Program-made: the position numbers and the translations under genes
In this document: in pieces, positions 2,915 to 51,109 of the stretch
Position numbering within the stretch: position 1 is the stretch's first letter
Layout: every line of letters starts with the position of its first letter
NCBI GenBank assembly: GCA_964187785.1
Contig: OZ076409.1
Location: 6,822,001 to 6,882,000 of the forward strand
Source: Amphiscolops sp. MND2022
Lineage: Eukaryota
Direction: 5' to 3'
Length of the DNA stretch: 60,000 nt
The notes under the pieces: model-generated
The model's database searches: none
Seen by the model: the letters and a program-made list of their open reading frames with translations, nothing else
What the model was told of the DNA's origin: nothing

Positions 2915-3370
2915 GGGAGCGGGACAAAACAGCCGATTTTCAAAATAGGACAAAACAGCCGATTTTTGAAATAGGACAAAACAGCTGATTTTAAAACAGT
3001 ACAAAGTCCGAAAGAATAAAATAAATTTTTCAATTTCCCCTAGTCAGCTATGTTCTCATACTCCTAGTGCCCTAAATGCAGGAGCGAAGCGAAGCGGAGC
3101 GACGTGCCATATGGCCATGCCTCAATGTTGCTACTTGGCGAAGGGAGCGAAACGACCGGGCCATACAACAAATATGCTAAGTATTTTTGAAAATCAGCTG
3201 TTTTGTCCCGATTCAAAAATCGGCTGTTTTGTCCCGTTTTGAAAATCGGCTGTTTTGTCCCGTTTTGAGAATCGGCTGTTTTGTCCCGTTTTGAAAATCG
3301 GCTGTTTTGTCCCGTTTTGAGAATCGGCTGTTTTGTCTCGTTTTAAAAACGGCTGTTTTGTCCCGCATCC
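2915..3370. mobile_element. Foldback/Mutator-like MITE with inverted arrays of a 26-bp unit around a ~140-bp core
   Basis: GGACAAAACAGCCGATTTTCAAAA units on the left and their reverse complement on the right. Flanking direct repeat CTCGTCATC (2906-2914 / 3371-3379; 8-9 bp depending on terminus). Confidence 0.8.
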
Positions 3371-3557: not shown

Positions 3558-4115
3558 TTAGTCACTGTAAGAGCCACGTCCCGTGGTGTCTCTCAAATCA
3601 CCAACGGACCGCGAGTCCTTTTTCAATAATTTTGTTTTCAAGCCGGATGAAATTTCCCTATTTTCCTGACTGCTAGGGGACATGCTAGCCTCAGTGTCCC
3701 TGTTCCCAGAGGAAGACATTGAACTCACAATATTTTGAATCTCTGGTAGCACCTTTTCTGATATGGCAGTACTGATTGCCCTATTTATTTGACTATGTAC
3801 CATGGCCATCATGGAATCCATTTCTTGAGACAGTCTAAGATTAAATTCATTTGAGAAAGTTTCAAAAGACTGCCTGACATCGTTCTGCCTGTATTCACTA
3901 TTCTCATGGGAGAAGTTTCTATATTCATCCCTTTGGTACAGATTAGCCTCACTGTCACTACGAACTGAAGATTGTTCAATTGCTTCAGTTAATTCTCTCT
4001 CTATGGGATTTTCACTCCCATTACCTAACATTACGTCCAAGTTGTCCATGTCGGACATCATGTCCATTTCTCTAGACTTTCTAGTTTTCGCCTTTTGACG
4101 TCTCGTAGAAGGCAT
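3558..4115 (-). CDS. Copy of the Gag N-terminus carried in the 3' LTR (frame intact, runs off the LTR end)
   Basis: MPSTRRQKAK...RGSY matches the N-terminal Gag encoded in the 5' LTR and stops just beyond the element boundary. Confidence 0.7.
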   Translation of the reverse strand: MPSTRRQKAKTRKSREMDMMSDMDNLDVMLGNGSENPIERELTEAIEQSSVRSDSEANLYQRDEYRNFSHENSEYRQNDVRQSFETFSNEFNLRLSQEMDSMMAMVHSQINRAISTAISEKVLPEIQNIVSSMSSSGNRDTEASMSPSSQENREISSGLKTKLLKKDSRSVGDLRDTTGRGSYSD

Positions 4116-5310
4116 GAGAGATTGTTGCAAGAGGAAAGAATTTAAATTGAAATCTTTAAGCTTGCAAATTAAAATTGTATTCGGTATTATAACAGCGAAC
4201 TTGACTGTGACTATTCGTATGAAGATTATGTCCCCAGGACCACGAGTCCCGGTTATTTATAATCAACTAAACATGACATGCACAAAAGTGGTAGTCATCA
4301 GTCTAATTTTAGCAACAGGTATTCTAAAAATAGACACAACATACAACGTGTCTTTACAAATATATTATCGTAATACTAAAATTAGCAACAGGTATGACGT
4401 AATTGATTCACGTGCTTCTACATATATGAAGTAGTTTCGTTCAAAGATGCACATGTGCCCCTTCAGGCCATTCAATTAAGTTTCAGTAGCAACACTTCAT
4501 GTAAAACAATACATACTAGATCATATGAAATAAATACATGCAAAGATGGTATGTGAACATTGAGCTGTCCTTTATGGCCTTTTAAGATACAAACAGCTCG
4601 TCTTGACTTTCTATCCAGGAAGTTCTGGAAAATAAGAGAATACAAAAGAGGGGGGGAAAAGGACTAATGGTCCTTTTGTAAACAAGGTGACAGATCTCCA
4701 ATCAGAGTAAATATACCGCTTCTGAGATAGTACATTATCAATTTCAATATACGCACTTCTTTTAATCTAGTTTGGACTCAGTGTCCACGCGTCCCTATAT
4801 AGTACAAGAGTAGCGTCGTTGTGGTGGCGAGTGGCCCTTGAGTCCTTTAATTTAGAATACAGCACAAAAGCGAGCAAATGAACAATGCACTGTGATTGGT
4901 TGAGAAATTGGATGGACAGCGCGTCTAGCGAGACAGGAAAGGAAACATTTGAACTCGTTTCCTTTACCTGTACGCCTTGGTGTCCAATTTCTCAGCCGTG
5001 GTATATATCTATCACTGTTATACATGTATTAATACACTATATTCAATTTTCAGCTACATACTTTACATGGTTAATTCCGGATAATTATTCCAAAGCGTTT
5101 CAAATTTCATTAATATAAAAGCCCCGAATAAAATGATATACTTACATAAACATATGCGAAATCAATCACAATAAGATAAGTCTATAGTTTGTCTTCTTAG
5201 ACTTTTGGACTAATAGTCCATTTCTCAGTTCATCGGGAGGGTACCAGGGAGAGTATTGTAGTTGTAGCCGACTGAGTACCAATTGCCATCGCAGGCGGCA
5301 GCCCGCGACA
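3566..5310 (-). repeat. 3' LTR (1745 bp)
   Basis: Direct repeat of 17640-19383 with about 10 differences by eye. Termini TGT...ACA. Confidence 0.97.
4774..4900 (-). promoter_or_regulatory. Putative LTR promoter (CCAAT and TATA); the twin lies at ~18847-18973 in the 5' LTR
   Basis: Minus strand CCAATCA at ~4893-4899 and TATATAG at ~4795-4801, upstream of the gag ATG. Confidence 0.45.
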
Positions 5311-6043
5311 CTCCCCCTGGCATAAGTAGAAAGGCGTTTGCGTTCATGCCATCTAGGAATGCTCTCCTCCTTGCCTGAGTCTCAGCTAAAGTCTCTCCTA
5401 CAGTTACTGTCCTGTCCAGATATTCGTTGACGGTCTCTTCTTGAATTTGTCTGACTGATTTCCCGCATACCACGCAGTCTGAGTAGTTGACTAAGGAGGG
5501 TGGCTCAGCAAGGACCATCTCGTCGAAATGACTTGCCACCGCTTCCATTGACGTGTTCATGGATGATGGTGAATCGTCATGAGGCTCACATGGGTATTGT
5601 AGACCTCTGTCCTGTTCAGGCGGAGACAGCGGGGTGTCCACCTGCGGTACTAGATTTCGGCATATATTTATGGGGTGATTAGATTTGATCCTGTTGTCCC
5701 GACTTACAGGCCCATTTCCCCTTGCCAAGTTGAAGTACTTCTCCCCAAAGGTAGGAAATGGTGGCACATTTGGCCTGGGTGTCACAGGTCTTTTCTGCTT
5801 TTGACCGGCTGAAGTTGAAGGAATTGATATGGGCTCCGCAAGTTGTCTCTCAATGCATTTGGCCATGAGTCTAATCTCGTCTGATTCGTCTTCGGACGAC
5901 AGGTACAAGTCTTCCACAGACCACCCACAATTCGAGTCCATCGCTTCCTCTTCGTCGCTAGAGATGTATATGATTGCCGGTTCCCCTTCTGATCTTGCTG
6001 CTCCGATGAAGTCCATCGGGAAAGTCTCGGAGATGTCTGACAT
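5225..6043 (-). CDS. Accessory ORF (272 aa) overlapping the PPT and 3' LTR; acidic SIM-like N-terminus and a CxxC motif
   Basis: Uninterrupted ATG ORF with IIYISSDEEE and CVVCGKSV...VNEYLD. Codons for PGGVS span the PPT/LTR junction. Confidence 0.7.
   Translation of the reverse strand: MSDISETFPMDFIGAARSEGEPAIIYISSDEEEAMDSNCGWSVEDLYLSSEDESDEIRLMAKCIERQLAEPISIPSTSAGQKQKRPVTPRPNVPPFPTFGEKYFNLARGNGPVSRDNRIKSNHPINICRNLVPQVDTPLSPPEQDRGLQYPCEPHDDSPSSMNTSMEAVASHFDEMVLAEPPSLVNYSDCVVCGKSVRQIQEETVNEYLDRTVTVGETLAETQARRRAFLDGMNANAFLLMPGGVSRAAACDGNWYSVGYNYNTLPGTLPMN
5311..5318 (-). promoter_or_regulatory. Polypurine tract
   Basis: Minus strand AGGGGGAG immediately before the TG of the 3' LTR. Confidence 0.85.
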
Positions 6044-7318
6044 AGCTCGGATTTTGAAGATTTTCTTTGCAATTTTGATTGTTTTCCTGTTGGAATTTAA
6101 ATGTTGTTGAAATCAACTGATTTTCAGCGGAGAAATTGAGATTATGGCGATCTCAGTTTCCTTCGACCACGAGTCTCTTCGTTTCTCCTTTCCCGGGTTT
6201 TCATATTTCCCGGAAAGTAATTCTTCAATAACAGATTCCGCTTCTCTTGTTCTTTCATCATGCCGCCAAGACACTTTGTAATTGCCGACATCAGTTTTAT
6301 TGACTATCATCAGCTAAGCTAATACTTCTAAGTTAGGAGAGTTACCTCAAGTGTTTATTAACACTCATCAGGCACTTGAAAGACTCAAGGAGGTAAAGTT
6401 ATGGCAGTCAGCCACGCCGGCCTTCATCGGTATGATCAACCAATAAGATTGCAGCAAAATTTCTCCCAAGTTAAAATGGCCTTTCAAGGTCGCAAGTCCA
6501 TATAAGGAATAATATAAAATGACCTTGAAAACGGAATAAAATAAAATAAGAAAAAATAAAATAAAATCATGGAATAATTTTGCAAATAACAAAGTTTTCG
6601 AAATTAATGGAAAAAGTAGATATCGCTGGCAGACTTTATCCACATATCTCCATAAATTGTAAATACTTGTAAATTTGACACCAAATTGTATAGCCACGAA
6701 CTCCAATCTTGACATCTTGTCACATCGCCAATTCTTCTTTCAATTCTTTATCATTCAGTTGTACTATTCACTTCTTGTATTATCCAGTATTTAATCACCA
6801 CATTTACTCTACATCGTATTTAATCCATAGTTAGTTTGAGTCTACAAGTCGTTTTTATTTATATATTTCTTTATATCTCCATCCCACTTTCATCTTCGGA
6901 CTCAGCGTCCACACGTCCCTAATCCTACGGATCTGTAAGGAATACTCTGACTAATCGACATCCAGTCCAGCTTGGTGATCTTAGTCAATTTCAACATCCC
7001 CAACTTCCTTCACACATACGGTGCAGCAATTTTTCACCTTCATCGCGACATACTACTTCACAAGCCGATTTGTATCTTTGCGAGGATCTACTGATATACT
7101 GCCAGTACCAAATTCCAAGTAAGTAGTTGCTCTTCTTTTGTTTTGAATAGAGATTAGGCTTGATCAGGGCTTTAATCACTTTCATCGACTTCCTGTCCAC
7201 ATAACACAAGTGTTCACAAGTGTTCAAACAAATCAACTTCCGGAAGATTTTTAAATGCGGTAAAATGGATTTTAATTCAGGAAGGTTCCCGCTTGATTTC
7301 CTCTCTTTTTATTTAGAC

Positions 7319-10300
7319 ATGTCGTCAGAGAACGTTGTTGAAGAAGCTACTACCATACCTCCTGGCACAGAGGGACAAGAACAGTCAGCAAATCCCCTCC
7401 CTACCGTCGTCAGCTCGACACAAGTCATTCCCCAGGAGACTTTAACCCCCAGTCCATCAACAGAAGAGAGCGTCAGTGCATATGTAGAGCGCACATTACA
7501 AGAATTAGGGCCCCAACATGAAGTTTGCTTCAACCCGACCATTGAGGCCGAATCGACAGAGCCAACTCCGGAACAGACTATACCAAAGGCATCTGTCTCG
7601 GATGCAATCGACAAGCTCATTGAAGGGAATGAGGGCCAGCCAGACGTATTAGTGGAGACTGAAACTCATAAAGAAGAAATGAGTGAAGAGGGCCAATTTA
7701 AGCTCAAAGCAGACTACTTCCAAACTGATACTAGCTCGGTAGAGGAGCTCTACGATAGTGCCGGGGCGGATACCACGACTCGTAAGCTCACATTTATAAC
7801 TTCTGGGGTTGCTGATCCAGAGGAGGAGGGACAAGAAGATCTGAATACAGGCCGTCTAGCTGAGACATCCAGTGTTGTTACTCGCGTACGACAATCGAAG
7901 GAAAAGACTGGCCTTACTGTCCCTGGTCGAGCATTGCTTAAGAAGTATTTCAATGAGGCCCCACCGGTTCACTTGCCTGTTGGGCACCGAACCCTGGCTC
8001 TTAGTGAGCCACAAGTCCATGCATTACTCAAGGTTGTCTCAGATGAAGCCGTTTCGTCGTCATTGCACACGATGCATTCACTGGTCAATGAAGCTCTCAA
8101 AGCCGGCAGTAGGATGAACAGGGAATGGGCTGTACCCGGAGGCTCTCGGGGTCCCCGTACAAATTCTGAGAGCTCGGCAGAAGACACATCCCGGGGCGGA
8201 CACACTACAGATGACTATACAAGTGGGGCTTTAAGTTCCGATGACGATTTCATCACCCGGCGACCCACACTTCCCCAAGTGTCGACGGACAATCAGGCTA
8301 CTTCGACTGAGGCAGTTACGTCCAGTGAAATGATCCCTAGTCCGGGGTTTACTGCCTCTGACTACAGGCCGTTATCCCAATTGTGTGCCCCCCAATCACC
8401 CGAGGGTCCCAAAAGACCCGTTCGAAAACGCAGGAAGGTGGCTGGATCTACAGGAAAAGTCATGAAAGAAGCCTATTTCAAAGGCATAAAATGGACCAAA
8501 ACCTTCGTGACCGGCCCCTTGGACCCAGAGCACAATAAACACAAATTTTATTGCCAAATCTGCAAGTCCAATATCTCTATGTTCTCAAAAGGGGCCAGGG
8601 AAATCGTGAGGCACTACCAGTCAGAGTCGCACCTTCGAAAAGACCAGCGCTGGAGGTACGAACACCTACGGCTTGTGGACCCGGTGACTGGCCAAGTGAG
8701 ACACGAAGTCCGGGGCAAAGACGGACGAGTCCTTACGCCAGTTGAGTTGGAGAGGGAAAAACCCCTTTTTGAGAACGCCGTTTTAGTTGACATAGGGGAC
8801 AAGCACCCCTTTTACGACGACTACATTGCCGGAACAACCGCTACGCCCAGCTCTGAAGAAATTAGAATTTGTACTCAGATTTCCCTGGTTGGCCACTTCG
8901 TCCCTCAGTGCGGAGACGTCCTGTTACTCCAGACTTTGTGGAACCAGATTGGCATAGCAGCTAACTACAAGGAACCATTTTCACCTCTCGAGTGGGGCGC
9001 TACCACTTTGACCGTAAGTATTCTTTCCTTTCTGACTTCGTCATCGTCGTAAGGTTTCCAATTGTCGTCGTCTCATTTAGTCCTTTATATTTCAGACTAT
9101 CTTTCACCACATTTTCCTCTGCGGAATGAGCGACAATTGTGTCAATCCGTTTCTGGAAGGCAGACACTTTGTGTACCGTTCGTCTCATGCAGTACCGCCT
9201 CGCCAGCGACCATGCCGCTGGACTGTTGACCGCAATAGCGCGCATCTTCTCATTCTGTACAGTCAGTACAGCCGCAATTGGTCAGTGTGTCTTGCTGTCC
9301 GTCGGAACTCATTCCCATTTTGGAACAGTCGGGCTTGCTAACGAAGAAAGGAATTCAATACCCATTTAGATTTGATACATTTTCTTTGCCCAAGCTCATG
9401 CATCAGAAATGGGGAAGCGTCTTCGGAGGGATCAACTTTTTCTCTCAACTCCGATTCTTAGTCACATTCGTAGATGGCTGTCAGGACGAGATCTGGGCCA
9501 CTCAGTCTCCTGAACTTGGCAAGGTAAATATAATCATATCTGTTTTGGCGGGTGGACTAATGGTCAGATTTCGCTCCCAAGTAGTTCTTTCGTTTAGGCA
9601 ATTTCAACTTGTTCTCTGGAAATCACATCAGTTCCTGCAATATGTTCCGAGCTGCTGGCGGACTGGAGGGCGGTCCATGATTATATGACCAGAGTTGCTC
9701 CGACTCAAAAAAACCAGGGAGTGAGGCATAGACCCCAAAGTTTAGAGTGGAGCATAATTGGTGATGAGTTCTTTCATCTCAAACTCGAATTCTTTGGCCG
9801 AATTGTCCGTGATTGTTAGTTTTTTCTTTTCTTTCATGGACCAATTATGTGTATAAGCATAGTTACTCACATTCAAGCTCACGTAGGGCCATTATTGTCC
9901 GAACGGACTAGGGGTCTACTCATTTATCACCAGTATATTCTCAAAAGGTTCGTTGTTTTGCAGATACCAAGTGCTTCGAGGGCAGTCTCTCTCAGCGGAA
10001 AGACTCTGGCTTCCTTACATACCGCGAGTTACGGCAGTTCGTGCGGAAGCTCTGCTACAGATCCTTGCTTCCGAAACATTTGCCTGATGAGGCCGACTGG
10101 ACTGGGCTACACTCATTACAGGGAGAGTCGCTCACTCAGCTTTCGTCACGGGATTTCCTCAATCGGTTAAAACTTAAAGGAGACCTGGACGCAGCTTGTC
10201 GGGCAAGAGCCAAACGTGAGGCCGACGATCCCCAAAGTGTATACACTGATTCTGAAGCCGCAGTTGAAGCAGTTAAGGAAGAATTTGCCTCCAAGGCTCG

Positions 10301-11117
10301 CAGTTATCTAGTTCGCCTTCTGGAACGTTTCCTTGATGACATCAGCTTCAATTCTGACATCGTTAAGGGTATGAGTTGCTTTGACCCTGTGGTCCTCCTT
10401 TCCGTGAGCTTTGATCAAGCCGCTCTTTGTTTTTCTACCCTCTATTACTCCTTCAGCTTGCGAGGATGGGTGTCCAATACTCCCGAGACTGAGGCCCGGG
10501 ATGAGTACCTTGAGTTCGTGGACTTCTTCCGTACCAAGTACCACGACTTTAAAGATGTTCCAGAAACTTTTACTGACATGATTGGGTTACTGACTCCCAT
10601 GCCTGAGTTGAGGTCCCGCCGGCACTTGTTCCATTTATTCCAGTTGAGTTGTCTTTGCTTGACTTCCCAGATTCCCAAACTGCCAGCTATCAAGTTCCAG
10701 GGCGTAAATAGCAGTGATCCTCGCTGTCGATTGTCCAGTGTCTTACTTCCTGCTCAGTCCTATTTAGCAAACGTGGTTGGGTCAGTAGCTGTATGTACAA
10801 CTGAGGCTTATTTGGAGAAATATCGCAAGCTTAAGTCCAGATTCATCAATGGGAATGTTGCAGGCGACCCCTGGGTCCACATTGACAGTTTTGGCAAGGC
10901 CAATTTCCTTAAGACTCTTATTTCCGGTCAGAAGGCTTTGAAAGATAAACCTCGCTCTGCTAGTCGGTCACCTTCGTCTTCGGTATCCAGTACTGGATGT
11001 CAGCGGCGTAATCGCAGTCCAATCAAAGATAAGAAAGGAGTGAAGTTTGGGGCTGTCTCCTTTTCTAAAGCACCCACTGCCAATGATACTCTGTTGCCCG
11101 GGAGTTCTAAAGACTAA
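7319..11117 (+). CDS. Antisense spliced gene, hAT-transposase-derived zinc-finger protein (exons 7319-9013, 9096-9523, 9598-9814, 9964-11117; exon 2 frameshifted in this copy)
   Basis: GT-AG introns with matching phases (0, 0, 1). BED-like finger CQIC...RHYQSESH, NLS KRPVRKRRK, and hAT-like segments LLADWRAVHDYM, LKLEFFGRIV and SDIVKGMSCFDP. Confidence 0.7.
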
Positions 11118-11331
11118 ATGTACATAGAGTACATTTGTTTCATATTCTGTCAACTTGTATTTATCATATTATCTCGTTTGTTGAAATTTCTTGAGTTTAT
11201 TTGTAGTATTTCTTGATGTCTAGTCTTCTTGATTTTTGTTTTCATTTGTATCAGTTGGGAAGTCCAGTGAAAAAATAGTAAGAAAATCAAGTAGTCTAAA
11301 AGGCTATCTGGACGTTAATTTACATATCTAG

Positions 11332-14300
11332 TTAATATCTGTATTCGTCAGTGAAGTTGGGGGTTGGGTTAGGTCGAAGATTGTATTTCCCTCCTCTAGG
11401 GCTAGAGTTTTCTTCATTTTTTCCATTTTCCGATATTCCGGGCACGGTAATATCTGCGCCCCTTTTTGGAACGTTTCCGTCATCATTTAATTCATTAGTG
11501 ACGTCATTTTCATTTTCCGTCCCAGTAGTCGATTCATGTGGAGGGGACGGCGCGTCACGGCTGCTAGCCGGTCTCGGCCTTATTTCATTCTCGTTGACGT
11601 CATTTGCATTTTCCGTCCCAGTAGTCGATTCATGTGGAGGGGACGACGCGTCACGGCTGCTAGCCAGTCTCGGCCTTATTTCATTCTCGTTGACGTCATT
11701 TTCATTCATTGTCTCGCTGCTGTCATTCTCGGTGACGTAATAGTCGACTTCACCATTCGTGGCGTCCTGCGGCAGACGCGTGGCCGTGTCTGGCCAATCA
11801 TTTTTCTTCGGCTCGAACAGCTCGTATTCAAAGTCTGCTTCCCATGAAATGGTATACAAATCGTCTTGCGGTATTATTATTTCTTCATCAGGCTGTAATT
11901 TTTCTTCTTTGTATTTGTCTTCTAATGGAGTATTAGGGACAAATTTTTTGAGCCTTATCCGGTGCAAGATTTGCGTTTTATTCGTATTTAAACGACGCAC
12001 TATATAATTGTTATTTGGTAGAGTTTTTTGAACGACAAAAGGACCAATCCATCGGAAGTCCCTGAATGGTATTTTAGATCCTTGACTATCTGCTTTCGGT
12101 TGGAGAACAAAACAGTAGTCTTTCTCCTGTAGCGGAGCCGCCTTGGCCTTGCGGTCGTAGTACTCCTTGTACTTTAAAAACGACTGCATAATATTCTTTT
12201 TAGTTTGATAAATGAGGATTTGCGTCCTCTGCTGCAATTCTTCCGCGAATTCAGTCGTTGGTAGGAAATTTTTGTTAGGATTATTCCCAAATTTGTGATC
12301 CAGGACGTTATAGGGAATTCGGCCATGAAAGACTTTGCTAGGCTCACAACCAATACTAGCATGGTAAGTGGTGTTATAGTTAAGCACAGCTAATGGTAAA
12401 AATTTGTGCCATTGACGACGGTATTCCCCTGAGGCCATCTTTAGGTTGGTTTTTAAAGAGGCGTGTGTCCTTTCGAGTTTACCAATAGTTTGCGGATGTT
12501 TAGTAGTGGCACACTTCAATGTGATCCCCAGTATTGCAGTAATTTCTTCTAAAATTTTTGATGTAAATGCGGATCCCTTGTCCGTGATGAGTGTTGTTGG
12601 CAAATACGAATGTTTCGTCATGATGTCAATTATCACCTTGGCTACGTTTGCGGCTGTTGCCTCAATTAGTGGGTAGGCGAATAAATATCTTGAAAATACA
12701 TCTATTGCCGTCATCACCGTTTGGTATCCGCCGCTAGTTGGTAAATTTGGCAGTAAATCGATTTGCATGGCATCTTCTGGGCCTAGGTCCCATTCAGGTA
12801 AATTCAGTAATTCTGGGGTGATTACCGTGTTGGGGACCCTTTTGTCCTTGGCACATGTTTCGCAGCCTTCTACCCATTTTTTGACGTGTTTTGCAATTCC
12901 GGGGTAGTAGTATTTTTGGCGAATTTCCTGTAGCATCTTAGAAATGCCCGGGTGTCTATGTGCCGTGCCATGTATTGCTTGTAATAATTCTTTGAGCAAA
13001 TGCTTTGGCAATAAGATTTGATGATATTTGACCTGTCCGGTTTCATCGTAGTTTTGCCGCGTCACTATCTCGTCTTTGAGGACTATTCGATCTATGTTGT
13101 TCAAGTAATACTTGTATCGAATATCCTGTTGAAGGATTTCTTCAGAGTATTCTTCTTTTTGAAGTTTCGCCCTTAATTGGAGGAGAATCGGGTCTCTGGA
13201 TTGTTCAAGCAGTATCTGAATTGTTCTTCTTAATTTCTGCGTGAAATTAGTAATCTCTTCGACGGTATTTTCTGATATAGCGTCAATTTGGATTACTGTC
13301 TCAGGGACTATGAGGCTCTTTTTGGAATGTTGTTTCCGTTTCCAAATCTGTTCTTCTGTTTCGTTGTCCTCCTCAGTGAAGAAAATTTGCTCTTCCTCTG
13401 ACACGCCGGCTGATTGGACATTGACCTCGATCGGTCTAGTTTCTACGTCCTCTCGTATTTTCAGGACCAACTTTTCAGTAGGGTCCATTTCCATACGGGA
13501 CAAGTAGTCTGCCGCTGTATTGTTTTTGCCTGGAATGTGAGCTATAATGAAGTTGAATTGAATGACAAAATCACAAGCATTCCAGAGAGGCGGTGGAATT
13601 ATCTTTGTCTGGAAGAACCTTGTGACCGATTTGTTATCTGTAAGGATAATCACGGGTTGAGGTGTTCCCCAGAAAATTTGTCCAAACTCCTTGAATGCAT
13701 AATATATAGCTAGGAATTCCTTTGCATATATCGACATTTTGAGTTGAGAAGGCGTGAAAGTTTTGGATCCATATGCAATCGGCGCATAGGACTTTTTAAC
13801 AGAAGTGTATTTCTGATTTGGGTCGTCTTCGGTCAATATGGCGTAACCGGCTGCTGTAAAACTTGCGTCAGTCATGAGGACCAGTTGTTTGTTCGGCAGA
13901 GGTTGTTTCAACGCCAATTGACTACATCGGTCTAAATCGCGGTTGATCGCATTAAATTGTTCAACTAGCTCTTGCGTGACTAGTACTTTTTCATCCTTTT
14001 TGAGCAATTGGAAGAAGGGAACTAGTTTTTCGGATAGCCTTGGAATATAATTCCTGTAGTAATTGAGGAAACCAAGATAGCGTTGTAAGGCCTTCTTGGA
14101 CTTTGGGAATTTCGTCTTTTCCAATAAATTGACGATTCTTTCTTTTTGGGGCTTTACGCCTTCAGGTGTAATGGTTCTCCCAAGAAAGTCAATTTCAGTA
14201 GCGCCGAAATGGCACTTGTGCATGGACAATTTCAATCCTGCTTCTCTGATACATTGGAACGTTGCTCTTAAGTTGACGATAAGCTGGTCAGCGTCTGTCG

Positions 14301-16503
14301 CCGCGACACCGATATCGTCCACATATTGAGCACATTGGTCTGCTTTTATAACACGATCCAGGTATTCCCTCATGAAACTGGAGAAGGCCGACAGGGCTCT
14401 ACTGAGTCCTTGGGCCAATCTTCTATATGCAAATGTCCTGCTGGCGAAGTTGAAAGCTAGCATTTCAATCGATTTCTGGTCTGCCATAGGAAGGCAATGA
14501 TAAGCTTGGGAACAGTCGAGTTTGCAAAAGAGCTTTTTGCCTGCCATATGTTGCGCCGCATCCGTCAAGGTGCTGACTGGGTGGTTGTTATTGACGTAGT
14601 CATCTGAAATCAGATTATTGATTTTCCGTAAATCCAACAACAGTCTCAGTTTTCCATTGGGTTTTTTCTGCGCAAATATTGGACTGGCGTACTTCGAGAA
14701 TGGTAATGTTGTTATAATCCCATATTTATGGAGTAATGCCAGTTCGACCAATATGTCCTCTTTGAGGTTGACCGGAGTAGGTAGGCTCTGACTGTAGGCA
14801 GGCGACTCGTCCTTTGGGGTCAGTTTGACCGTAAATTCCTCATTGACGCCAATATCAAATCTGTGGCGTGCAAAGATGTCATGGAATTCCACTAATAGAG
14901 TTTCTATTTGTCTGATTTCATGTTGTTGTAACATTGAGTCCTTCCAATCAAAATTGCTGAGGAATTTTCGACGAGATTCCGCATCGTCGTGCGGGTTGAG
15001 TTGTTCTAAACTTTGCAGGTTTCGTAATTCTTTGAGAATTCTTTGTTGTATTGGGGTATGGGTCGTTTCGTCCCCTGGGTTTTCAGGCGTCGGGAACCAA
15101 TATTGTTCGTATTGGTCATTATTTCTGTTAGCTTTAAGAAGGCTACTAATATAATAAATAGCGTCGTCTTCATTTTCATTCAGTAAGTGCCAGGTGGACA
15201 CTGGGTCTATTGGCCTGACGTGTTTCATCTGTTCAGGGGTCATCACTGAAAAGTTTGCAATGTGCATCCCTTTCTTTATTTTATAGGGTTGATCAGTGAA
15301 ATTGTTGACGTGTATTCTCGTAGCCCCTTCATGTAGTGTGACTATGGCGGCACAGAAGGTTATGTCGCCTTCCTCGTGCAGAAGATCGCTGGGTTGCAAT
15401 ATGCCCGTAACTGCATTTTCTGCGTAAATTTGTGATTGAATGGGTATGACCACATGGTCATTGGGCGGAATTGTGACATCCTCAGGATTGAGGATGGGTT
15501 CCAAAACATTTGAGTATTTATGGTCAGCCGTCTTGAGTTGCATCGAGAAGTAGGGAAAGTTGAGTATACCTTGGCGCATGTCCAGGACAGTGTGGTTCCT
15601 TTGAAGGAATATTAGTCCAATTATGGGGCTTGACAGTTTTTCCATTACAATGAAAATTTCGTGAAATTCTATGTCGCCCACTTCGAATTTTAGTTCGACT
15701 GTGCTCTTTGGAGTTTCTAAGTCTCCATTTGCGACCATTATTTGGAAGGATGGGGCAGGACCTTCTTTTACAATGGATTGGGGGGCCAACAGGCGTATTT
15801 TCCTGAGGTCTGCCTCCGGGATTGCACTGGAGTGGGCTCCAGTGTCTATCAGGCCATCTAGAGTTAATTCCCCAAAGTCCATTGGGAAATAGAGCATTCG
15901 TCGTTTGAATTAAAGTCCAAGGTTTGTTGAAAGGGGAACGTATGGTAATTCTCCTTCCTTGGTCACTAGGAGGTGTAATAAGGCTGTCTCATCTAAAAGA
16001 CTATTAGGAGCCTTGTGGTCCTCCTGTGTGTGTATGGCGTCTACTTCTTGTATAGTTGCCTCAAAGTTCGGCTGCCAAAGATCAATGAGGGCCCGAGACA
16101 GTGTGTTGTCTTCGATGTCTGGGTCGTCCTCGTCGTCAGTTGGAGGGTAATATTCGTTTCGAAATTGTAAATTTATTTTGTCATATAGTTTGTCGTCCCA
16201 GTACGGGTCTTTGCCATACTCGGGGTCATAGTATTGAGGGTTATAATCTTCGACAGTTTGTAAGGGTCTAAATTGAGTTTCGGAGTCGTTGTAATTGCTA
16301 TTCCGTCGATATAGGTATGGGTGATCACTGTGAATGATATATTGAGTTTCTTTGCGGGCGTCGGCCATCTGCTGCTGCCAGACAGTCGATGGCATCCCTG
16401 TGGTGTCGTTTTGAGTTTGTTTATATGTAATGTTTGCAGGGTCAGATATGACATACTGTCGTACTGACATCTTGTTACATATTTGGAGTCGTGGCGAAAT
16501 TAG
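11332..16503 (-). CDS. pol: Pol polyprotein (protease, RT, RNase H, integrase) with an in-frame nonsense codon at 15910-15912
   Basis: LIDTGA protease, QYVDD RT, TDAS/TDNK RNase H, H-H-C-C plus D,D,E integrase (IDLL, TDKG, LER), GPF motif. ORFs 15910-16470 and 11332-15897 share one frame. Confidence 0.96.
11499..11708 (-). repeat. 96-bp in-frame tandem duplication in the integrase C-terminal tail
   Basis: TGACGTCATT recurs at 11499, 11595 and 11691. The peptide NDVNENEIRPR.ASSRDA.SPPHESTTGTEN occurs twice. Confidence 0.9.
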
Positions 16504-18188
16504 TTTTTTGAGTCCGTTTTACGTGAGTTTGATTGGCTTGAAGATGCAGTTTCAGGGTTAGTTGACTTTTTGGACGATTTTTCATCGCCAGAGGTGTCAT
16601 CAGCCTTATCCTCAGGACGTGTCCTTTTGGGTCGTAAATGTGCTCCAGCCCCTTTCCAGCATCTTTCAACAGGGTGATTTTTCTTTCCGCAAGTAGGGCA
16701 TTCTGGGTATGTAGGACGTTGGGGCTTTTTGCCATTTTTGTCCTCCAGTTCTTTCTTCTTCTTCAATTTAGGGCAGCTCTTATAGAAGTGGCCTGTGGCT
16801 TTACAATAAGAGCATTGTGCGTCCTTTTTAGTATTTATGCCATTAGAGAGCAAATTGTTGTTACTGGAGGACGCAGAGGCCATTGTAGCGATTGGCAAAT
16901 CGTCTTGACTCTTCTAATGCGTTGAGTTCAAGCTCTCTTTCAAGATGAGCGACGATTTCTTCATATGTCCCGTTCTCCAGGCGGGCCATATTGACAGATC
17001 GTTTCAATTTTGGAGGCAGTTTTGCGTATAATAAGCTGTCGATCATGCTTTTTGCATTTTCGCCGAAAGCTTTTTCTGCCCCCTGGTTCAGTTCTTCCAA
17101 GAAATCCGGCAATTTCATGGTATTCGGATCGAAAGTCAGCCGATGCCATTTGTGTTTTGCCGTTGCTTGGGATTCCGGTTTGACGTATTTTCTCCGGAAT
17201 ATGATTAGCACATCCTCGAGTGTTTGGCGGTTAATTGAGTTTATGTTCCTGAAGGTCTGCAGGGCCCCTTTTCTGAGCAATGAGTGAAAATGGTTTATTT
17301 TCATTTGCTCTGTCATGGCCGGTTGCATTTTGATCATTGTGTGGAACAAATCTTCAAAGAGTTCGAATTTCTCACTCTTTCCGTCAAACGTCATAGGTGT
17401 CGTTTGGACAGGTCGGATAGTCATCGTTTGGGGTTTATTTTGCAAATTGACTAGTACATCAGCCAATCTATTGAGCGGGTCCTGAGGCGGCTCTTTGACC
17501 TCTGGTTCTGGTGCTGGCAGAGTGGTGTCCAGAGAGACATTGTGGTTAGATTGCTGTCTCTCTAGGTTCGGGATTGAGTGGATTCGTCCAGTGAGAAATT
17601 CAGGTATAGGCTGTTGGGCTTCGTTAGCTCCTGTCACCATGTAAGAGCCACGTCCCGTGGTGTCTCTCAAATCACCAACGGACCGCGAGTCCTTTTTCAA
17701 TAATTTTGTTTTCAAGCCGGATGAAATTTTATATTTTCCTGACTGCTAGGGGACATGCTAGCCTCAGTGTCCCTGTTCCCAGAGGAAGACATTGAACTCA
17801 CAATATTTTGAATCTCTGGTAGCACCTTTTCTGATATGGCAGTACTGATTGCCCTATTTATTTGACTATGTACCATGGCCATCATGGAATCCATTTCTTG
17901 AGTTAGTCTAAGATTAAATTCATTTGAGAAAGTTTCAAAAGACTGCCTGACATCGTTCTGCCTGTATTCACTATTCTCGTGGGAGAAGTTTCTATATTCA
18001 TCCCTTTGGTACAGATTAGCCTCACTGTCACTACGAACTGAAGATTGTTCAATTGCTTCAGTTAATTCTCTCTCTATGGGATTTTCACTCCCATTACCTA
18101 ACATTACGTCCAAGTTGTCCATGTCGGACATCATGTCCATTTCTCTAGACTTTCTAGTTTTCGCCTTTTGACGTCTCGTAGAAGGCAT
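16500..18188 (-). CDS. gag: Gag, broken by two 1-nt frameshifts (~17731 and ~16906)
   Basis: Three overlapping ORFs join into one protein with a capsid-like region (FDGKSEKFELFEDLF) and two CCHC knuckles, CSYCKATGHFYKSC and CPTCGKKNHPVERC. Confidence 0.9.
16503..16509 (-). promoter_or_regulatory. -1 ribosomal frameshift slippery site A AAA AAC (gag-pol)
   Basis: Minus strand TCA AAA AAC TAA ends gag. The -1 frame continues open into MSVRQYV... of pol. Confidence 0.8.
17628..17639 (-). promoter_or_regulatory. Primer-binding site TGGTGACAGGAG (tRNA-Leu-like, tentative)
   Basis: TGG directly after the CA of the 5' LTR. Complementary to a tRNA 3' end CTCCTGTCACCA. Confidence 0.8.
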
Positions 18189-19383
18189 GAGAGATTGTTG
18201 CAAGAGGAAAGAATTTAAATTGAAATCTTTAAGCTTGCAAATTAAAATTGTATTCGGTATTATAACAGCGAACTTGACTGTGACTATTCGTATGAAGATT
18301 ATGTCCCCAGGACCACGAGTCCCGGTTATTTATAATCAACTAAACATGACATGCACAAAAGTGGTAGTCATCAGTCTAATTTTAGCAACAGGTATTCTAA
18401 AAATAGACACAACTTACAACGTGTCTTTACAAATATATTATCGTAATACTAAAAATAGCAACAGGTATGACGTAATTGATTCACGTGCTTCTACATATAT
18501 GCAGTAGTTTCGTTCAAAGATGCACATGTGCCCCTTCAGGCCATTCAATTAAGTTTCAGTAGCAACACTTCATGTAAAACAATACATACTAGATCATATG
18601 AAATAAATACATGCAAAGATGGTATGTGAACATTGAGCTGTCCTTTATGGCCTTTTAAGATACAAACAGCTCGTCTTGACTTTCTATCCAGGAAGTTCTG
18701 GAAAATAAGAGAATACAAAAGAGGGGGGGAAAAGGACTAATGGTCCTTTTGTAAACAAGGTGACAGATCTCCAATCAGAGTAAATATACCGCTTCTGAGA
18801 TAGTACATTATCAATTTCAATATACGCACTTCTTTTATTCTAGTTTGGACTCAGTGTCCACGCGTCCCTATATAGTACAAGAGTAGCGTCGTTGTGGTGG
18901 CGAGTGGCCCTTGAGTCCTTTAATTTAGAATACAGCACAAAAGCGAGCAAATGAACAATGCACTGTGATTGGTTGAGAAATTGGATGGACAGCGCGTCTA
19001 GCGAGACAGGAAAGGAAACATTTGAACTCGTTTCCTTTACCTGTACGCCTTGGTGTCCAATTTCTCAGCCGTGGTATATATCTATCACTGTTATACATGT
19101 ATTAATACACTATATTCAATTTTCAGCTACATACTTTACATGGTTAATTCCGGATAATTATTCCAAAGCGTTTCAAATTTCATTAAAATAAAAGCCCCGA
19201 ATAAAATGATATACTTACATAAACATATGCGAAATCAATCACAATAAGATAAGTCTATAGTTTGTCTTCTTAGACTTTTGGACTAATAGTCCATTTCTCA
19301 GTTCATCGGGAGGGTACCAGGGAGAGTATTGTAGTTGTAGCCGACTGAGTACCAATTGCCATCGCAGGCGGCAGCCCGCGACA
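17640..19383 (-). repeat. 5' LTR (1744 bp)
   Basis: Direct repeat of 3566-5310, followed on the minus strand by the PBS. Confidence 0.97.
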
Positions 19384-20446: not shown

Positions 20447-23400
20447 GTCTTTACCTGATCTTCGATGTCTCGTGTCATCGGTTCCTGGACATTTTCACGA
20501 CGATAGCTGTGTACCTGCACTTGTTCGGGGTCATCGTAATTCCCGCCTTCTGCTGTGTGTCGTTCGTCTGGTTCAGGGATCACGAAGACCAGGACGAAGA
20601 TGACACAGAGGTCAGGGGTCAACTTCGGAAGAACGGAATAAATTTAACTGAATAAGATAGAACGCTTTGTGATTGGTGGAGAACACCCCCTTCATATCAA
20701 TTTGAGACATTTGATTGGTTTAGATCTAACTCTGTTAGACCTTATTCCGCTTTCTAGTCAACTTCTACGAAACTTTGATAATTATAATAAACTGAAATAA
20801 AAACGAAAACGTGTTACGGTGATTTTATGACCGGATATCAAAATGAAGTTTTCACACATTGATTTTAGCATGTTTAGCGAAACTAAAACGTTGTTATAAA
20901 AATTTTTGAAATTAACTGTGATTCCTGGAACAAAATAACCAATAACACAGCAACCATGTGTTTATTCCGGTTTCGTTGGACAACGGTAAAAAAGGACATC
21001 TGCCAGAATTAAAATTGTATTTATTTTCAAAGATACTTTTTAGGATTGAAACTTTTCTTATCAGCCGGCCTCAAACCATTTGAACATAAATTTAAAATGC
21101 TAATTGGAATCCGGTATTTTGTGTTTCTTTGGAACAAACACACCAAAAAACGCGTCGCAGTGATGTTTTTCGAAAACGGCGCGTGGTGATATTTCGAATA
21201 TGGATGACTTCTGACCGTGGTACCATCTAACGAATTTGGCGTCTTCGGCACCGTGAGACGAAATTTATTATTGTCTACACATTCCTGTTAATTTTTTTTC
21301 GCATTTTCTCATAAACTCTCCAGCGATGATTTTGCCAGTCTTTTTTGGAATTAAAGAATGGAGAGACTAAGTTATATTGTGATTTTAGGTCAAGATCGGG
21401 TAAAAACAGTTATTACATAATTTTAGGTCAAAGTGGGGTCAAATCGTCATTTTGTGACTTCATAGGTTAAGATCGGGTCAAGTTTCTCCCCCGAGAAGTG
21501 CTCTTACCCCACCTACCCGGTGCCTGGATTGCGTGACTCAGGGTCCAAATATGGGGGCAGTAGCAATGGTGGACCCAGCAACCAATCAAAACGCGTTCCT
21601 GTTGCCTCAGAAAACGAGACAAACCCGTACACACATCAAATTAGTAGCTTGACTTACGTGGTAGGTTTCTAAATAGGTTTCTAAAAAATAGCTACCAAAG
21701 AACTCTGTGATTGAATAAATCACTTGAAAAAGTGTTTTTAGTTGGCGCTTTTTCCTTTTAAGGAAAAATGCCCGACACTTACAGAGACCTTTTTTTCACA
21801 CTCATTGGTCCACTTTCTACAGAAACTACTAAAACTACTCAGGCCAAGTCCGGCCAATGCAAACTTACTGCAAAGGGCCCCCTTTCATTTTTTTACTTTT
21901 TTAACCTAACCTACAAAACCGGACGAGACTTAAGGGCTCCCCTCTTGATTTTTTTCGGCACAAACTAGTGCCGAAAAAACTGAAAAAGGAAACCCTTTGG
22001 TCTTGAAAACGCTTTTTCCTAACCGAAATATTTAAACGATCAAAGATTCCAAAAAAAAGTACAATTCCAAAAATAATACTCAAATTCGTTTCCAATTCAA
22101 GTATGATTGGTAGACCTTTCACTGTAACGTCCAGCAGTCGGCGAACGAAAGTTACAAAATTTCGATGAAAAATTCGAAATGTGCGATTCGAAATGGCCGA
22201 CCCGACAGGTCGACCGAAAATCGTAGAAGATTATTATTCACTTAATATAATGTACTTTGGCTGAACACCATTTTTGGACCTCGGAGGTATGTAGGAAAAA
22301 CGCAGAAATCCTAGGATTTGTTTTTACAGGCTTGTGGGACGTGTCCCGACTTTGAGAGTGTCGGCACGTCGCCTCGGAGCTCTAACTGAGGAGCCTCCTT
22401 AGACGAATGGAAAAGTTCCTTTCAGGAGACCATTTTGGGATTAAAAACTAATCTCTAGGTTGTAGTAAGGCACTGGTCTCCTGTTCAAGCAATCTAGGCA
22501 TTGTCCCACTTCTATGATGTGTGTCACTAGCCTGACGTTACACATTATCCCTTTAACTACATCCTCTAGACACTTTAATTTTAATCTATAGTAGACCTTT
22601 TAACTATATCACGTAATGAACACAAAGTACAGTTTTTCATTCAAGTTTGTTTACTAACAAATTGTTAGTACTCTAGACCGAAACTCGGCAGTGGCTAGGA
22701 CGAATGAACTGTATAACAAGGAGTACCCTCCATTCAATTTTAATTTTAGCCTCCCTCGTGTTTGGATGGACCCAGACCAGGCAGAAGTATGAGTTTGGGA
22801 AGCAGCGGGGAATTCTATGGAGGCAATATCCCAGCAGTTGAGGAAACTCCCGCCAAAAGCCCCGCCCGTTCCAAGAGCCAGCTGGCATTGAGACCTCGCT
22901 CCAAAACCGAGTCTCAAAAACCGCAACGAGTGGCTCTTTCGAGTCAACATTCTGGGACGAGAACTTACGAGAACATTCAACGCGGAGGCGCAAATCCCAC
23001 TGCGAGCAAGGGAAAGTCGGAATTCGTTCACGTGAGAACTCCTGACAAGTCTATCCGCTTCAAAATTCCTTCGGAACGACCACAAGGTAAGCCAACAGGA
23101 CCATTTCTCTCACCCCCAAACCCAAAAATATTTATTCATCTCTTTAAACAATATTGTTTTCCCAGAAAAAAATTATGTAAATAAAAAAAATCAACCATAA
23201 ATTTAAAAAAAAATGGATTTGATTGATTTTTAAAAAAATTGGATTTTAATCCATTCATGATCACTGTTTTATTGCCAGGGTATGATGCGAGTTTTGTGCC
23301 ACCGGAGAACAGAAATCGCATTCCAGTCACCAACTACCAGACTGGCATTCTCAAAGACTCCGCCCACTCCTCTTCCTCCTCAGTTCTCCCCATGACGTCA

Positions 23401-24332: not shown

Positions 24333-27300
24333 TGTAACGACCGGCTAGCGACGCACATCTAGGAAGAGGGACAATGCCTAGGGTGCTTAAACAGGAGACC
24401 GTTGTCTTACTACATCCCTAGGCACTAGTTTTTGTTCCCAACATGGTCTCCAAGGGGGACTTTTCTTGCGTCTAAGGAGGCTCCTCTAGTTAGAGCTCCG
24501 AGGCAACGCGCCGACACTCTCAAAGTCCGGACACGCCCCACAAGCCTGTAAAAATGAATCCTAGGTTCCTAACACATACATTCCTGCCACCTCCTACATA
24601 CTTCCGAGGTCCAAAAAGGTGTCTAACTGAAATACATTATATTTGGGTAATAAGGACTAAAATGGAGACCTAGTAGGTCAAACATCATCCAAATACTCTG
24701 TAAACGGTGACAAAACACGAGGATAAGCCCCTATAACATTACAGTTTAGGATTGGTCATCAGTTTGGCCTCTGGCATCATTCCTCATCTTCGGGGCAAAG
24801 TGGTCTCATTTGGCATTTTTCTGCCTAAACACTGTCTTTTTGCTGTCAGATGGCACAATTCCTGATTCTCTCGCCTTCTGGGTGATGACATGTCTGATAT
24901 TCACGTTACTGGGTGGGGTGGGGGTGCTTTTTTCCTATTTTGCTTCCTCTACGGTTTTCGTACCTGTCAGGTCTGCCATCTTGAATGTGCTTGTTTGATA
25001 CCGCCCATTTCGAATTTTTGATCGAAATTTTCAAAAACTTCTGCAACGTCCCTTGCCTGACGTTACATCCTCCCCGGGCCGTTCACATCCCCCGACAGAG
25101 GAAGTTCACATCTTGGTTGCCACCATCCAGTGATCCAGTGATACTGTTGCAACATGGTACGTCAGGAATCTAAATGGAAGTCTATGCCCAAAAACACGTT
25201 ACTGCACAAAAACATGAATTTTTGCCAGCCTAGCGGGCTTCATTGGATTCCACACCCACTGACTCCTAGCAATGGAATACTATTAGCAACTTTAGACACT
25301 TAGCATTGTATTCAAAACGTTTTCAAACTTTTTTTCGCACCAATATGACTAGCACTTTGTGTTACCGCATCTGTATTAGTATAAAAAGCACTTATCAGAA
25401 CATATTTGGCATTGGCCGGGGGCCCACGTGATAGATTAGGTTTTACAAAGTGCACGATAGCACTTAAAAGCGAAAAACAAAAGTAACAGCTGTGGTCTTG
25501 CAAAAGGTTCGTAGTTCATGGTCAACAGAAACTGCAAAATAAATAGCACCAATGGGCAAAACAGAGCTCAAAAATTCAAAATATCATCAAAAGTGAGGAT
25601 CCATTCTGTCTATTGTGTTAGCAGTGTATGTTCAGATAAGGTATCGTCTAGGTAGTACAAGCACCAGTGTATATGCAAGAGATGGAAATAAACTGCTTCT
25701 CAAAAGGATGACAATGTCAATAGTGATAACAGAGCAAATCCAATAAAGGTCGAAAATCAGGCATTATAGATCATGAAAACAGTCTTTGGCGTTAAAAACA
25801 AGTTCCAGAGCAGTCATTCTAGTTCTAAAAGAACGGCCGTTGGCCAAGCAGTTCTCAGAGCTTCGAAGCTCCAGGTGTTTCATCATGCTTGGTGTTGATT
25901 TCTCTCGGGAGAGTACGTGTACTCCCCGGGCCAATGTCTTGTCCGTTGCTTTCACATCGACATGGTTCACACAACTGTGGTGTCGAGAACCGAGGTACAC
26001 CTCACGCATGAATCGAGCAACGAACACTGATTTTTTGAGAAACCTGCTTGGCTACAGATATTAGATTGTCTGAAAAGTCAGTTTGTCACTCATGATGCCC
26101 TGTCTCTGGAGAGCACCAGTAATGACGTAAAAGTGATCAGGGACTGGGAATAGGCCTTGGGGTTAGTAGGAGGGAGGACACTGAGTTTGAAGTAATTTTT
26201 TGCCTTTATGACTGTAGTACGATCAGAAAAAGCGTTCTTTTTCAACTATGGTGTTCACTACTGTACTTGTCGTTCTGTTTTGAGACGCACTGCGTTCAAA
26301 GTCTGAACCTACAAAAAAGCCTATAAACAAGCTCCAGCACCCACAGGGTACACAGGGCACCAAGCAAGCGTGTTCACAACGGATAACTTACACTTAGGTG
26401 ACTTTGATAGCAGTCAGGAGGCGAGTTTCGATTTTTGGTTTTTCACCTCTATGTGTCGTAGACCGTTTTCTCTGAGACCCGAGATCTTAGGGTCGGTTTA
26501 GCACTAATCAAAGTGATTCAGCAGGACCTGGTGAGCGTGCCTAGTTTGCTATCGAGGTCGTTTGGGCCCTCACTGGCACGTACATTGACAAAAAGTGTGC
26601 GATTTGTCTCACAAAATTGCAAAATCAACAATTTGTTCGTCAACAGGCACCTCCAGGGAAAGTCAAATTCAGTTCTAGCGCTGCTAGCGACCTGAAAAGT
26701 TCACACCGTTTATTATACCAGCTAAATAGTTTGGAATTAACCTCCGATTGCCCCAAAACTGACTCTGTGAGTGTTGCGGTCACCTCACAATGTTCACTGA
26801 AAAATTGACTAAGTCGTGAAATTCACAAAAATTGGTCAAACTCGCCTTCTAGGCGTCCTAACTACCTGCAATTTTGTATGCGAGCGTAGATTATGCCCTC
26901 GTAGAAAAAACTACGGCGGCGAGCTGCTTGGAGAATTACCTGGTGATTCGGTTCGACAAAACCTTGATGTACCTGAGGTACCATTTGTTCGGGTCAAATT
27001 TCACAAAAATGTCAATTTCTCAGCTTTGGCTAGCCACTGGCTGCTCAAATTGGACAAATCGCCGGAAAACTTAGGTGCTGGGATACCTTGGAGATATCGC
27101 GCTAGGCTCAACTAAATTTCCGTTTTTTTTGCAACTTTGTGCACTTTTTGAGCAAAACTGTGGCCAAGATTTTTCCACGAGTATCAACAGTAGCGTCACC
27201 AAAATTACGCTACTAGCGCAATTTTTTACGCTCTATACGATGGTGCAAGCCGATTTTGGCTCTTCTTGTTAGGAGAGATTTCCACTCATCGAAAAAACGT

Positions 27301-50240: not shown

Positions 50241-51109
50241 GAATCAGTACATTCAATTCCAAGAACATTAGAGATACCAAGTTGTAATATTGCCACATTG
50301 TAGTTAGACGCTAATGACTGAACTGAACACAGTAGAAAGGAGTCCTATTACCTAATTACTTTCTTTCGGAACGTGGATTACCCGCTTTTGAGCTGCGTAT
50401 CCAGCCACGCTGTGTTCAATTGTTGCCTTCATGTTCAGATATCACTACCCCTAAATCTTTACATGCACGAAAGAGTTGACGTTGTTTTTCTTGGCCCTCT
50501 TTTCAAACGCGGGGCTCCTGGACATGCAAAATGCCGGGTACCTTTAGCAGCAACAGACTGGCATAAATCAGAGAACATCAAGAAATGCGCAGCCCCTATC
50601 AACGTGACATTATCACAGAGGAGGCAAAAGGGGGGGGCTATTGGCAGACGAGGGCCCGTCCCGTGCATAAAATCCCATCCTTTCAGATTTCGCCAAGCTG
50701 GCAATTCCGACGCTGGCGGCAGCTTGACGTTACATAATGTACGCCCTCCAAATGGGTTTTCAAGAGAAATATTTTTCAGGTGCCCCGTGGAACCATTTTC
50801 GTCTCTTTTTCAAACGCAACACTTTTAAAGGACCATGTGTCGTATCCCCCCCAAGCGGCCGCGGGGGAAATATAACACAAGGCTTAAATACCATTATGTC
50901 GACATCGTTTGCGTAGGAATTTTGGTCCAACAAATTAATTGATGTCGACATAATCCTATCCATTACATTGACTGTCAGTTAAAAGTTGCTCATTAGATTT
51001 TAAATTTCCGTCGAAATAGGGGCCAAATTGTACGATTTTACCTTGTTTTAAGCGTGAGTTTCTGCTATTTGGGACACTAGAATCACAAGAAGAAACAAAT
51101 TTTTCCAAA

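Follow-up and report, generated by a model that had tools for sequence, protein, structure and literature searches.

A probable antisense accessory gene with three predicted introns in a Gypsy retrotransposon family of Amphiscolops sp.

Antisense genes of retroelements and the Amphiscolops locus

Retrotransposons with long terminal repeats (LTRs) are usually described as gag-pol machines, and accessory genes, the feature that makes retroviruses complex, are thought to be rare among them. Here, we analyzed a stretch of 60,000 nt from the genome of Amphiscolops sp. MND2022 (assembly GCA_964187785.1, contig OZ076409.1, positions 6,822,001 to 6,882,000 of the forward strand; hereafter, the window). 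The window contains a Gypsy LTR retrotransposon with an intron-bearing gene at 7319-11117 on the plus strand, which lies on the other strand from gag-pol and between pol and the 3' LTR. Very probably, this antisense gene is an accessory gene belonging to the Gypsy lineage and not an insertion into one element.

Antisense open reading frames (ORFs) between pol and the 3' LTR are given as a hallmark of plant Gypsy elements of the Retand/Tat/Grande group, with TRP28 (PF04195) or PMD domains, in PMC11963269, PMC4408406, and PMC7264820. As far as those sources describe them, the plant genes resemble the window gene in their antisense orientation, their location between pol and the 3' LTR, a long spacer, and the suggested role as nucleic acid-binding regulators; Grande also has a promoter of its own, according to the title of a cited paper, which recalls the putative promoter of the window gene. 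The protein family and the host group differ, and no TRP28 or PMD match was found in the window family by Pfam search at E ≤ 1. The window gene has three introns, whereas the word "intron" is absent from the main text of PMC11963269 and PMC7264820.

The Boty-like (BcGypsy1) Ty3/Gypsy element of Botrytis cinerea carries an antisense gene named brtn (Zhao et al. 2011, Virology 417:248, as cited in PMC8365987). In that second-hand description, brtn is likewise an extra gene opposite the gag-pol of a Gypsy element and is carried by a whole subfamily. It is a fungal gene; the protein of the window family is about 1,183 aa long and bears a single C2H2 finger. Among retroviruses, HBZ of human T-cell leukemia virus type 1 (HTLV-1) is a small bZIP protein that is transcribed from the 3' LTR, has a spliced form, and acts in the nucleus. 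Like HBZ, the window gene is a protein gene, with predicted splicing and a probably nuclear product, on what is the minus strand of its retroelement, in the 3' part; unlike HBZ, it is much larger, encodes an unrelated protein, and has a putative internal promoter 2 kb from the LTR. Antisense genes of HTLV-1 and the deltaretroviruses, including HBZ, are mentioned in PMC11963269. The literature search, which covered subscription journals thinly, returned no description of this protein and, apart from plants and fungi, none of a Gypsy element with an antisense gene that has introns. The antisense accessory architecture is already known, and the protein family, its size, the three introns, and the host lineage are new.

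Layout, introns, and selection across the element family

The whole Amphiscolops genome (1.07 Gb in 1,929 contigs) was searched with the last exon of the gene, exon 4, and 103 matches were scored out of 7,637 first-look candidates. Thirty-two of them were 97-100% identical to the query (31 stop-free), one was 86% identical, four were 73-75% identical, and one was partial; about 65 more, nearly all open, fell at 56-57%. The 10 kb around 16 copies drawn from all of these identity groups were examined. In 16 of 16, exons 1 and 4 lay on one strand and a Gypsy pol on the other, tail-to-tail, with pol 82-99% and the antisense protein 44-98% identical to their window counterparts.

The exon borders of an intact close copy were mapped onto 11 copies. 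Six of the 11 gave a stop-free product, of 1,183 aa in subfamily A (L021 and L024) and 1,209-1,210 aa in subfamily B (L029, L031, L033, and L036). GT-AG borders were present at 32 of the 33 introns. Exon lengths were steady, with exon 2 measuring 486 nt in 9 of the 11 copies and exon 3 measuring 217 nt in all 11, whereas the introns drifted in length (82-89, 68-74, and 149-156 nt). Intron 3 is absent from two distant homologues in the public protein set, P0016 and P0071, whose single ORFs align gap-free over the in silico exon 3-exon 4 junction of subfamily A and thereby fix this junction independently. The database ORFs P0194-P0196 read through intron 1 in frame. Introns that lie antisense to the genomic RNA survive retrotransposition, which is an established principle. 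The three GT-AG introns of this gene would be antisense in the genomic RNA, would not be removed from it, and would thus be copied into each new insertion.

The evolutionary constraint on the protein was estimated from ratios of nonsynonymous to synonymous substitution (dN/dS, Nei-Gojobori) for pairs within subfamilies. The values were 0.104 (L031-L036), 0.097 (L021-L024), and 0.124 (L029-L033), and those of exons 2-4 were lower still, 0.015-0.09. These ratios indicate that the antisense gene is under purifying selection, both within and between subfamilies, which suggests that the protein matters to the element. They also bear on two other explanations. One is that a DNA transposon nested itself a single time in an element, or that a host gene was transduced and is now a passenger without function. 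The window copy is indeed broken, as are 5 of the 11 mapped copies; the identical layout in all 16 copies across subfamilies, the purifying selection, and the lack of terminal inverted repeats (TIRs) or a target site duplication (TSD) around the gene together rule this explanation out for practical purposes, and we consider it extremely improbable. An inverted pair at 6998-7019 and 11341-11362 was rejected as TIRs, since it spans only 22 nt with 77% complementarity, its right arm is inside pol, and its flanks are unlike each other.

The other explanation is that the gene restrains its element, with the protein acting as a self-limiting repressor in copy-number control or with the antisense transcript itself being active as double-stranded RNA with the genomic RNA. 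The layout in itself implies antisense transcription that overlaps the genomic RNA, and two reviews (PMC7264820 and PMC11963269) propose regulatory roles for plant antisense ORFs. A role of the RNA only leaves the conserved exon lengths unexplained, as well as a dN/dS that is about 0.1 across 1,183 codons, and it does not fit such codon-level constraint; overall, we regard restraint of the element as quite unlikely. The accessory gene of the Gypsy lineage is the reading that we retain.

The introns diverge less (p 0.23-0.33) than the synonymous sites of the flanking exons (pS 0.49-0.59) in L031-L036 and other pairs. The short introns, or the genomic RNA, may be under constraint; alternatively, the method may be biased.

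The gene of the window itself is no longer intact. It ends with TAA at 11115-11117; on the plus strand, an ORF of 565 codons opens with the ATG at 7319, and a terminal ORF of 401 codons runs to 11117. Exon 1 (7319-9013, 565 codons) encodes the acidic N-terminus, a basic cluster, the finger, and a conserved region after it. It is followed by intron 1 (9014-9095, 82 nt, GT-AG), exon 2 (9096-9523, 428 nt), intron 2 (9524-9597, 74 nt, GT-AG), exon 3 (9598-9814, 217 nt), intron 3 (9815-9963, 149 nt, GT-AG), and exon 4 (9964-11117, 383 codons and a stop), which encodes a conserved domain predicted to be all-alpha and then a low-complexity tail. Compared with sibling copies, exon 2 of the window shows a deletion of 65 nt after 9135, with 4 additional nt at 9257-9260 and another 3 at 9343-9345. 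Its frame is lost because of the 65-nt deletion and the 4-nt insertion, so that exon 1 read into exon 2 meets a stop at 9339-9341, an open exon 2 is ruled out for this copy, and the conceptual product terminates after 646 codons. The 65-nt deletion is private to the window copy (1 of 20 distinct close copies). Over the 656 nt that span exon 2 and its introns, 17 of the 19 siblings are gap-free; one has a 2-nt gap, and one has a 3-nt gap.

The original prediction, which was made from the sequence of the window, can be judged against these data. It had placed the gene on the plus strand, within a Gypsy host and between pol and the 3' LTR, and the LTRs, the TSD, and the pol domains of such a host were all found. 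The distance to pol, put at 215 bp, is 214 nt when measured from the gene stop to the pol stop at 11332-11334, and the tail-to-tail arrangement holds. The three predicted introns have GT-AG ends, as it had said, and the same borders yield stop-free proteins in 6 of the 11 mapped copies. The claim that the intron phases match was mistaken for the window copy: its exons total 3,494 nt, which is no multiple of 3, and the stop at 9339-9341 follows. The absence of TIRs or an 8-bp TSD around the gene was confirmed, the best inverted pair being the one rejected above, and its proposed check for a constant position in the family with dN/dS below 1 came out in its favor (16 of 16 copies; dN/dS of about 0.1).

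The family extends well beyond the copies that were mapped. A HMMER search with exon 4 against 1.84 billion representatives (50%-identity clusters) returned 463 proteins at E ≤ 0.001, 268 of them at 1e-10. The best 150 of the 463 were all of 418 aa or less and therefore correspond to exon-sized ORFs; a search for longer homologues of exon 4 found none, and the 10 clusters of homologues that were looked up bore no name. One of the homologues, P0025, is 31-32% identical to exon 4 of subfamily A and matches the Amphiscolops genome at 100%, with more than 100 copies in several subfamilies. A further set in the same genome is 36-42% identical to P0016. Three different queries each gave more than 7,000 first-look candidates and more than 100 scored matches in this genome. 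These comparisons indicate that the antisense protein family is old and very diverse within one genome.

Upstream of the gene, a conserved noncoding block of about 170 nt (7150-7318, plus strand) is the best-conserved DNA of the area. It is identical between subfamilies A and B at 131 of 166 positions (79%), whereas identity over the opening 170 nt of the coding sequence is 36%. Its three ETS-like cores, at about -130, -82/-79 (a palindrome, ACTTCCGGAAG), and -41, are kept in five of the six copies checked, the remaining one having no -41 core. The block is a putative internal promoter or 5' untranslated region of the antisense gene, and transcription would probably start from a promoter of the gene's own within it. 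A bacterial-type promoter scan of 6000-7400 gave chance-level results with a model that is irrelevant to a eukaryote.

The predicted protein, its ancestry, and its possible role

The intact protein has 1,183-1,210 aa. Its first 380 residues are acidic (59 D+E against 35 K+R) and 30% Ser/Thr/Pro, and a basic cluster resembling a nuclear localization signal (NLS), KRPVRKRRK, lies upstream of the finger. The finger, at residues 412-438, is a single C2H2 finger with a long spacer (CQIC-x16-H-x5-H; C-x2-C-x16-H-x5-H), and all five sequences that span this region keep both the finger and the basic cluster. Pfam matches of the finger were subthreshold, to a ZN292-like model (E 0.0014; 19 bits, with the cut-off at 27) and to KIN17 C2H2; no zf-BED match appeared at E ≤ 1. 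About 770 conserved residues follow the finger, and the last 330 or so are predicted to form an all-alpha domain.

Searches for structural relatives gave little. The ESM Atlas returned no usable match for exon 4. With a good model of exon 4, Foldseek found nothing at E ≤ 0.001; its best values (E 0.42 in PDB and 0.035 in BFVD) are within the stated noise for helical models, and the residues beyond about 234 were barely covered. Sequence and profile searches of PDB produced nothing relevant. In the searches run, this is a protein family without a recognizable fold relative.

The ancestry of the protein was also considered. The gene may descend from a catalytically dead hAT transposase that was taken over by the retrotransposon, with a BED-like finger, a core resembling RNase H, an insertion domain, and a dimerization region at the C-terminus. 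This concerns where the gene came from and is compatible with its being an accessory gene. A language-model look-up with residues 60-440 of P0196 (the finger, the rest of exon 1, and exon 2) returned named clusters that were all hAT-derived (DUF4371, FAM200-ZBED5_RNase-like, ZBED1_RNase-like, DUF659, and zf-BED), with scores of 0.79-0.85, below the 0.9 line, so that they serve as leads only. A low-confidence model of exon 2 predicts a strand-strand-strand-helix run, the pattern with which an RNase-H-like fold begins. By eye, the order and spacing of the domains would be hAT-like, and an alignment with Hermes points to hAT, but at noise level.

Direct comparisons did not bear this out. At E ≤ 1, Pfam detected no hAT-related family in exons 1-4 of two subfamilies, in 29 exon 4 homologues, or in 17 exon-1/2 sequences, and this includes the families of the hAT RNase-H-like core (DUF4371, FAM200-ZBED5_RNase-like, and ZBED1_RNase-like). 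The hAT dimerization model PF05699 matched none of the 29 exon 4 homologues at E ≤ 1; elsewhere in the same genome, it has 150 matches above the cut-off. In comparison with six full-length hAT transposases from this genome, hhalign gave probabilities of 0.4% for exon 4, 0.7% for exon 1/2, and 0.2% for exon 2 alone, from shallow alignments (Neff 1.5-4.2). The 249 ORFs of 18 hAT loci, searched with hidden Markov models (HMMs) of exons 2 and 4, gave scores that did not exceed those of reversed controls, and no transposase frame was matched. The fold search of the exon 4 model, as given above, adds nothing in favor of hAT.

In summary, the gene shares with hAT transposases and their relatives (ZBED, FAM200, and DUF4371) an N-terminal C2H2-type finger, a predicted strand-strand-strand-helix start, and a large helical part. 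It differs from Hermes, ZBED, and other hAT proteins in having no sequence, profile, or convincing fold similarity to them and no PF05699 match, TIR, TSD, or identifiable DDE triad; since no alignment to a hAT core was obtained, the catalytic D, D, and E positions cannot be assigned. A missing TIR and TSD is expected for a domesticated gene. We therefore treat hAT ancestry as a tentative idea that is rather more doubtful than probable. As to the features named by the original prediction, the acidic N-terminus and an NLS-like cluster are present, and the finger is of the C2H2 type and conserved but drew no zf-BED match at E ≤ 1, whereas descent from a hAT transposase found no support in the Pfam, PDB, hhalign, HMM, and Foldseek tests. 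Overall, the prediction was sound on an antisense, intron-bearing accessory gene fixed in a Gypsy family and unsupported on its hAT origin.

For the accessory gene itself, a role can be proposed. The product would be a nuclear, nucleic acid-binding factor acting in trans for the element, and it might activate transcription, counter silencing, or guide integration. From the composition of the protein, we give such a nuclear, nucleic acid-binding, trans-acting function a little less than an even chance. A fuller scenario, which we think unlikely, would have one mobile element domesticating another: a dead hAT transposase would have become a spliced antisense accessory gene of a large, old Gypsy clade, with its own ETS-type promoter, and would serve as a DNA-binding factor for targeting or anti-silencing, perhaps together with ORF3, a second accessory ORF of the element.

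Several observations weigh against the reading of the gene as an accessory gene of the Gypsy lineage. Five of the 11 mapped copies are frameshifted, and the window copy is broken too. The putative three-intron splice model comes from comparison, and, of the three junctions, only that of intron 3 is backed by homologues that lack the intron. Translation may begin at 7265 or at 7319, because an alternative in-frame ATG at 7265 has a good context and is conserved, and no AATAAA or ATTAAA occurs within 300 nt after the gene stop. The layout was examined in subfamilies A and B and their intermediates, and the deep families (31-42% identity) lie outside that sample. The AlphaFold model of P0196, which covers the finger and exon 2, has a mean predicted local distance difference test score (pLDDT) of 39.4, and the function is deduced from composition and one zinc finger. 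Finally, for the pair L029/L033, the proportion of synonymous differences (pS) is 0.58 in pol and 0.22 in the antisense gene. This mismatch points to recombination within the element between subfamilies, and it makes simple rate comparisons less secure, such as that between subfamilies A and B, where the nonsynonymous difference is 0.31 for the antisense gene and 0.082 for pol and the antisense protein would be changing about four times faster. The accessory proteins of retroviruses are likewise fast-changing.

The host element, its surroundings, and biological meaning

The host element occupies 3566-19383 on the minus strand (15.8 kb). Self-comparison of the window gave raw direct repeats at 3561-5310 and 17633-19383, and the LTR pair is 99.26% identical over 1752 columns. 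Both the 3' LTR (3566-5310, minus strand) and the 5' LTR (17640-19383, minus strand) have TG..CA ends, and GTCAC on both outer flanks represents a 5-bp target duplication. A purine run (CAGGGGGAG, element strand), a candidate polypurine tract, adjoins the inner side of the 3' LTR, and TGG... adjoins the 5' LTR, where a candidate primer-binding site would lie. The pol ORF (11332-15909, minus strand, 1,525 codons) encodes protease (PR), dUTPase-like, reverse transcriptase (RT), RNase H, and integrase (IN) domains, in the Pfam order gag-asp_proteas (aa 17-104), RVT_1 (415-580), RT_RNaseH (672-770), Integrase_H2C2 (968-1023), and rve (1044-1139). The pol of copy L031 has the same domain order. With paired LTRs, a TSD, and the PR-RT-RNase H-IN order, the host is a Ty3/Gypsy LTR retrotransposon. 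The spacer between the pol stop and the 3' LTR, in which the antisense gene lies, measures 6 kb.

The dUTPase-like domain lies between the protease and RT domains (about 15240-15485, minus strand; pol aa 142-224) and scores exactly at the Pfam cut-off (22.0 bits) in subfamilies A and B. A dUTPase in this position of pol has been reported for bdelloid rotifer and basidiomycete elements and is rare in retrotransposons (PMC5408684). In the C-terminal tail of pol, 96 nt are tandemly duplicated (11499-11690, 97% identical), and an acidic, Ser- and Pro-containing segment of 32 aa is thereby repeated.

An in-frame stop at 15910-15912 (minus strand) cuts the window pol off from a 202-codon upstream frame; seven siblings (L022, L029-L032, L034, and L035) do not have this stop and show a single ORF of 1,660-1,720 codons. 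The gag region (15910-17745, minus strand), with a DUF1759 domain and CCHC knuckles, is spread over three frames in the window copy. An LTR-internal ORF is found in both repeats. Its 3' LTR copy (3558-4256, minus strand) shares its frame with the sequence leading on into gag beyond the 5' LTR, so that the start of gag seems to be inside the LTR, and an indel puts its 5' LTR copy (17712-18329, minus strand) out of frame with gag. The window element is thus defective despite its near-identical LTRs, with a frameshift in exon 2, an in-frame stop in pol, and a gag that is out of frame.

ORF3 (5225-6112, minus strand, 295 aa) is on the sense strand and faces the antisense gene head-to-head; the final 85 nt or so of ORF3 extend into the 3' LTR. 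It matched no Pfam family, has no transmembrane-looking stretch, and contains acidic Ser-rich stretches that follow hydrophobic runs (IIYISSDEEE and LYLSSEDESDE). The search of the same genome with ORF3 scored 133 matches at 62-100% identity, most of them stop-free and spaced from antisense gene copies as expected. By this measure, ORF3 is co-conserved with the antisense gene in the element family.

Other repeats were observed in the window. A different family has direct copies at 24333-25054 and 28638-29352, 4,305 nt apart and 97% identical, which look like the LTRs of a different, shorter element; a third partial copy (82-94%) lies at 323-1006, and an inverted piece lies at 22310-22543. Just outside the 3' LTR, there is a 26-nt tandem array (3159-3366) with an inverted copy at 2920-2996, 190-290 nt upstream. 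At 51058-52974 (plus strand), two adjacent ORFs of 364 and 259 aa, judged by eye, look like a non-LTR (LINE-type) reverse transcriptase. Genome-wide, the integrase core model rve (PF00665) gave 25,833 first-look candidates, indicating a very high retroelement load; comparison by eye of the best 150 of these with the exon 4 coordinates revealed no pair, a sampling too sparse to be informative.

A large, intron-bearing antisense gene under purifying selection would thus be a fixed part of a very abundant Gypsy clade, and it offers a natural case of introns kept through retrotransposition by their orientation. Annotation pipelines are likely to call such exons host genes or to leave them as ORFs without assignment. 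The gene adds an unannotated protein family without a recognizable fold, and its product is a candidate element-encoded regulator that could explain how these elements are transcribed or escape silencing.

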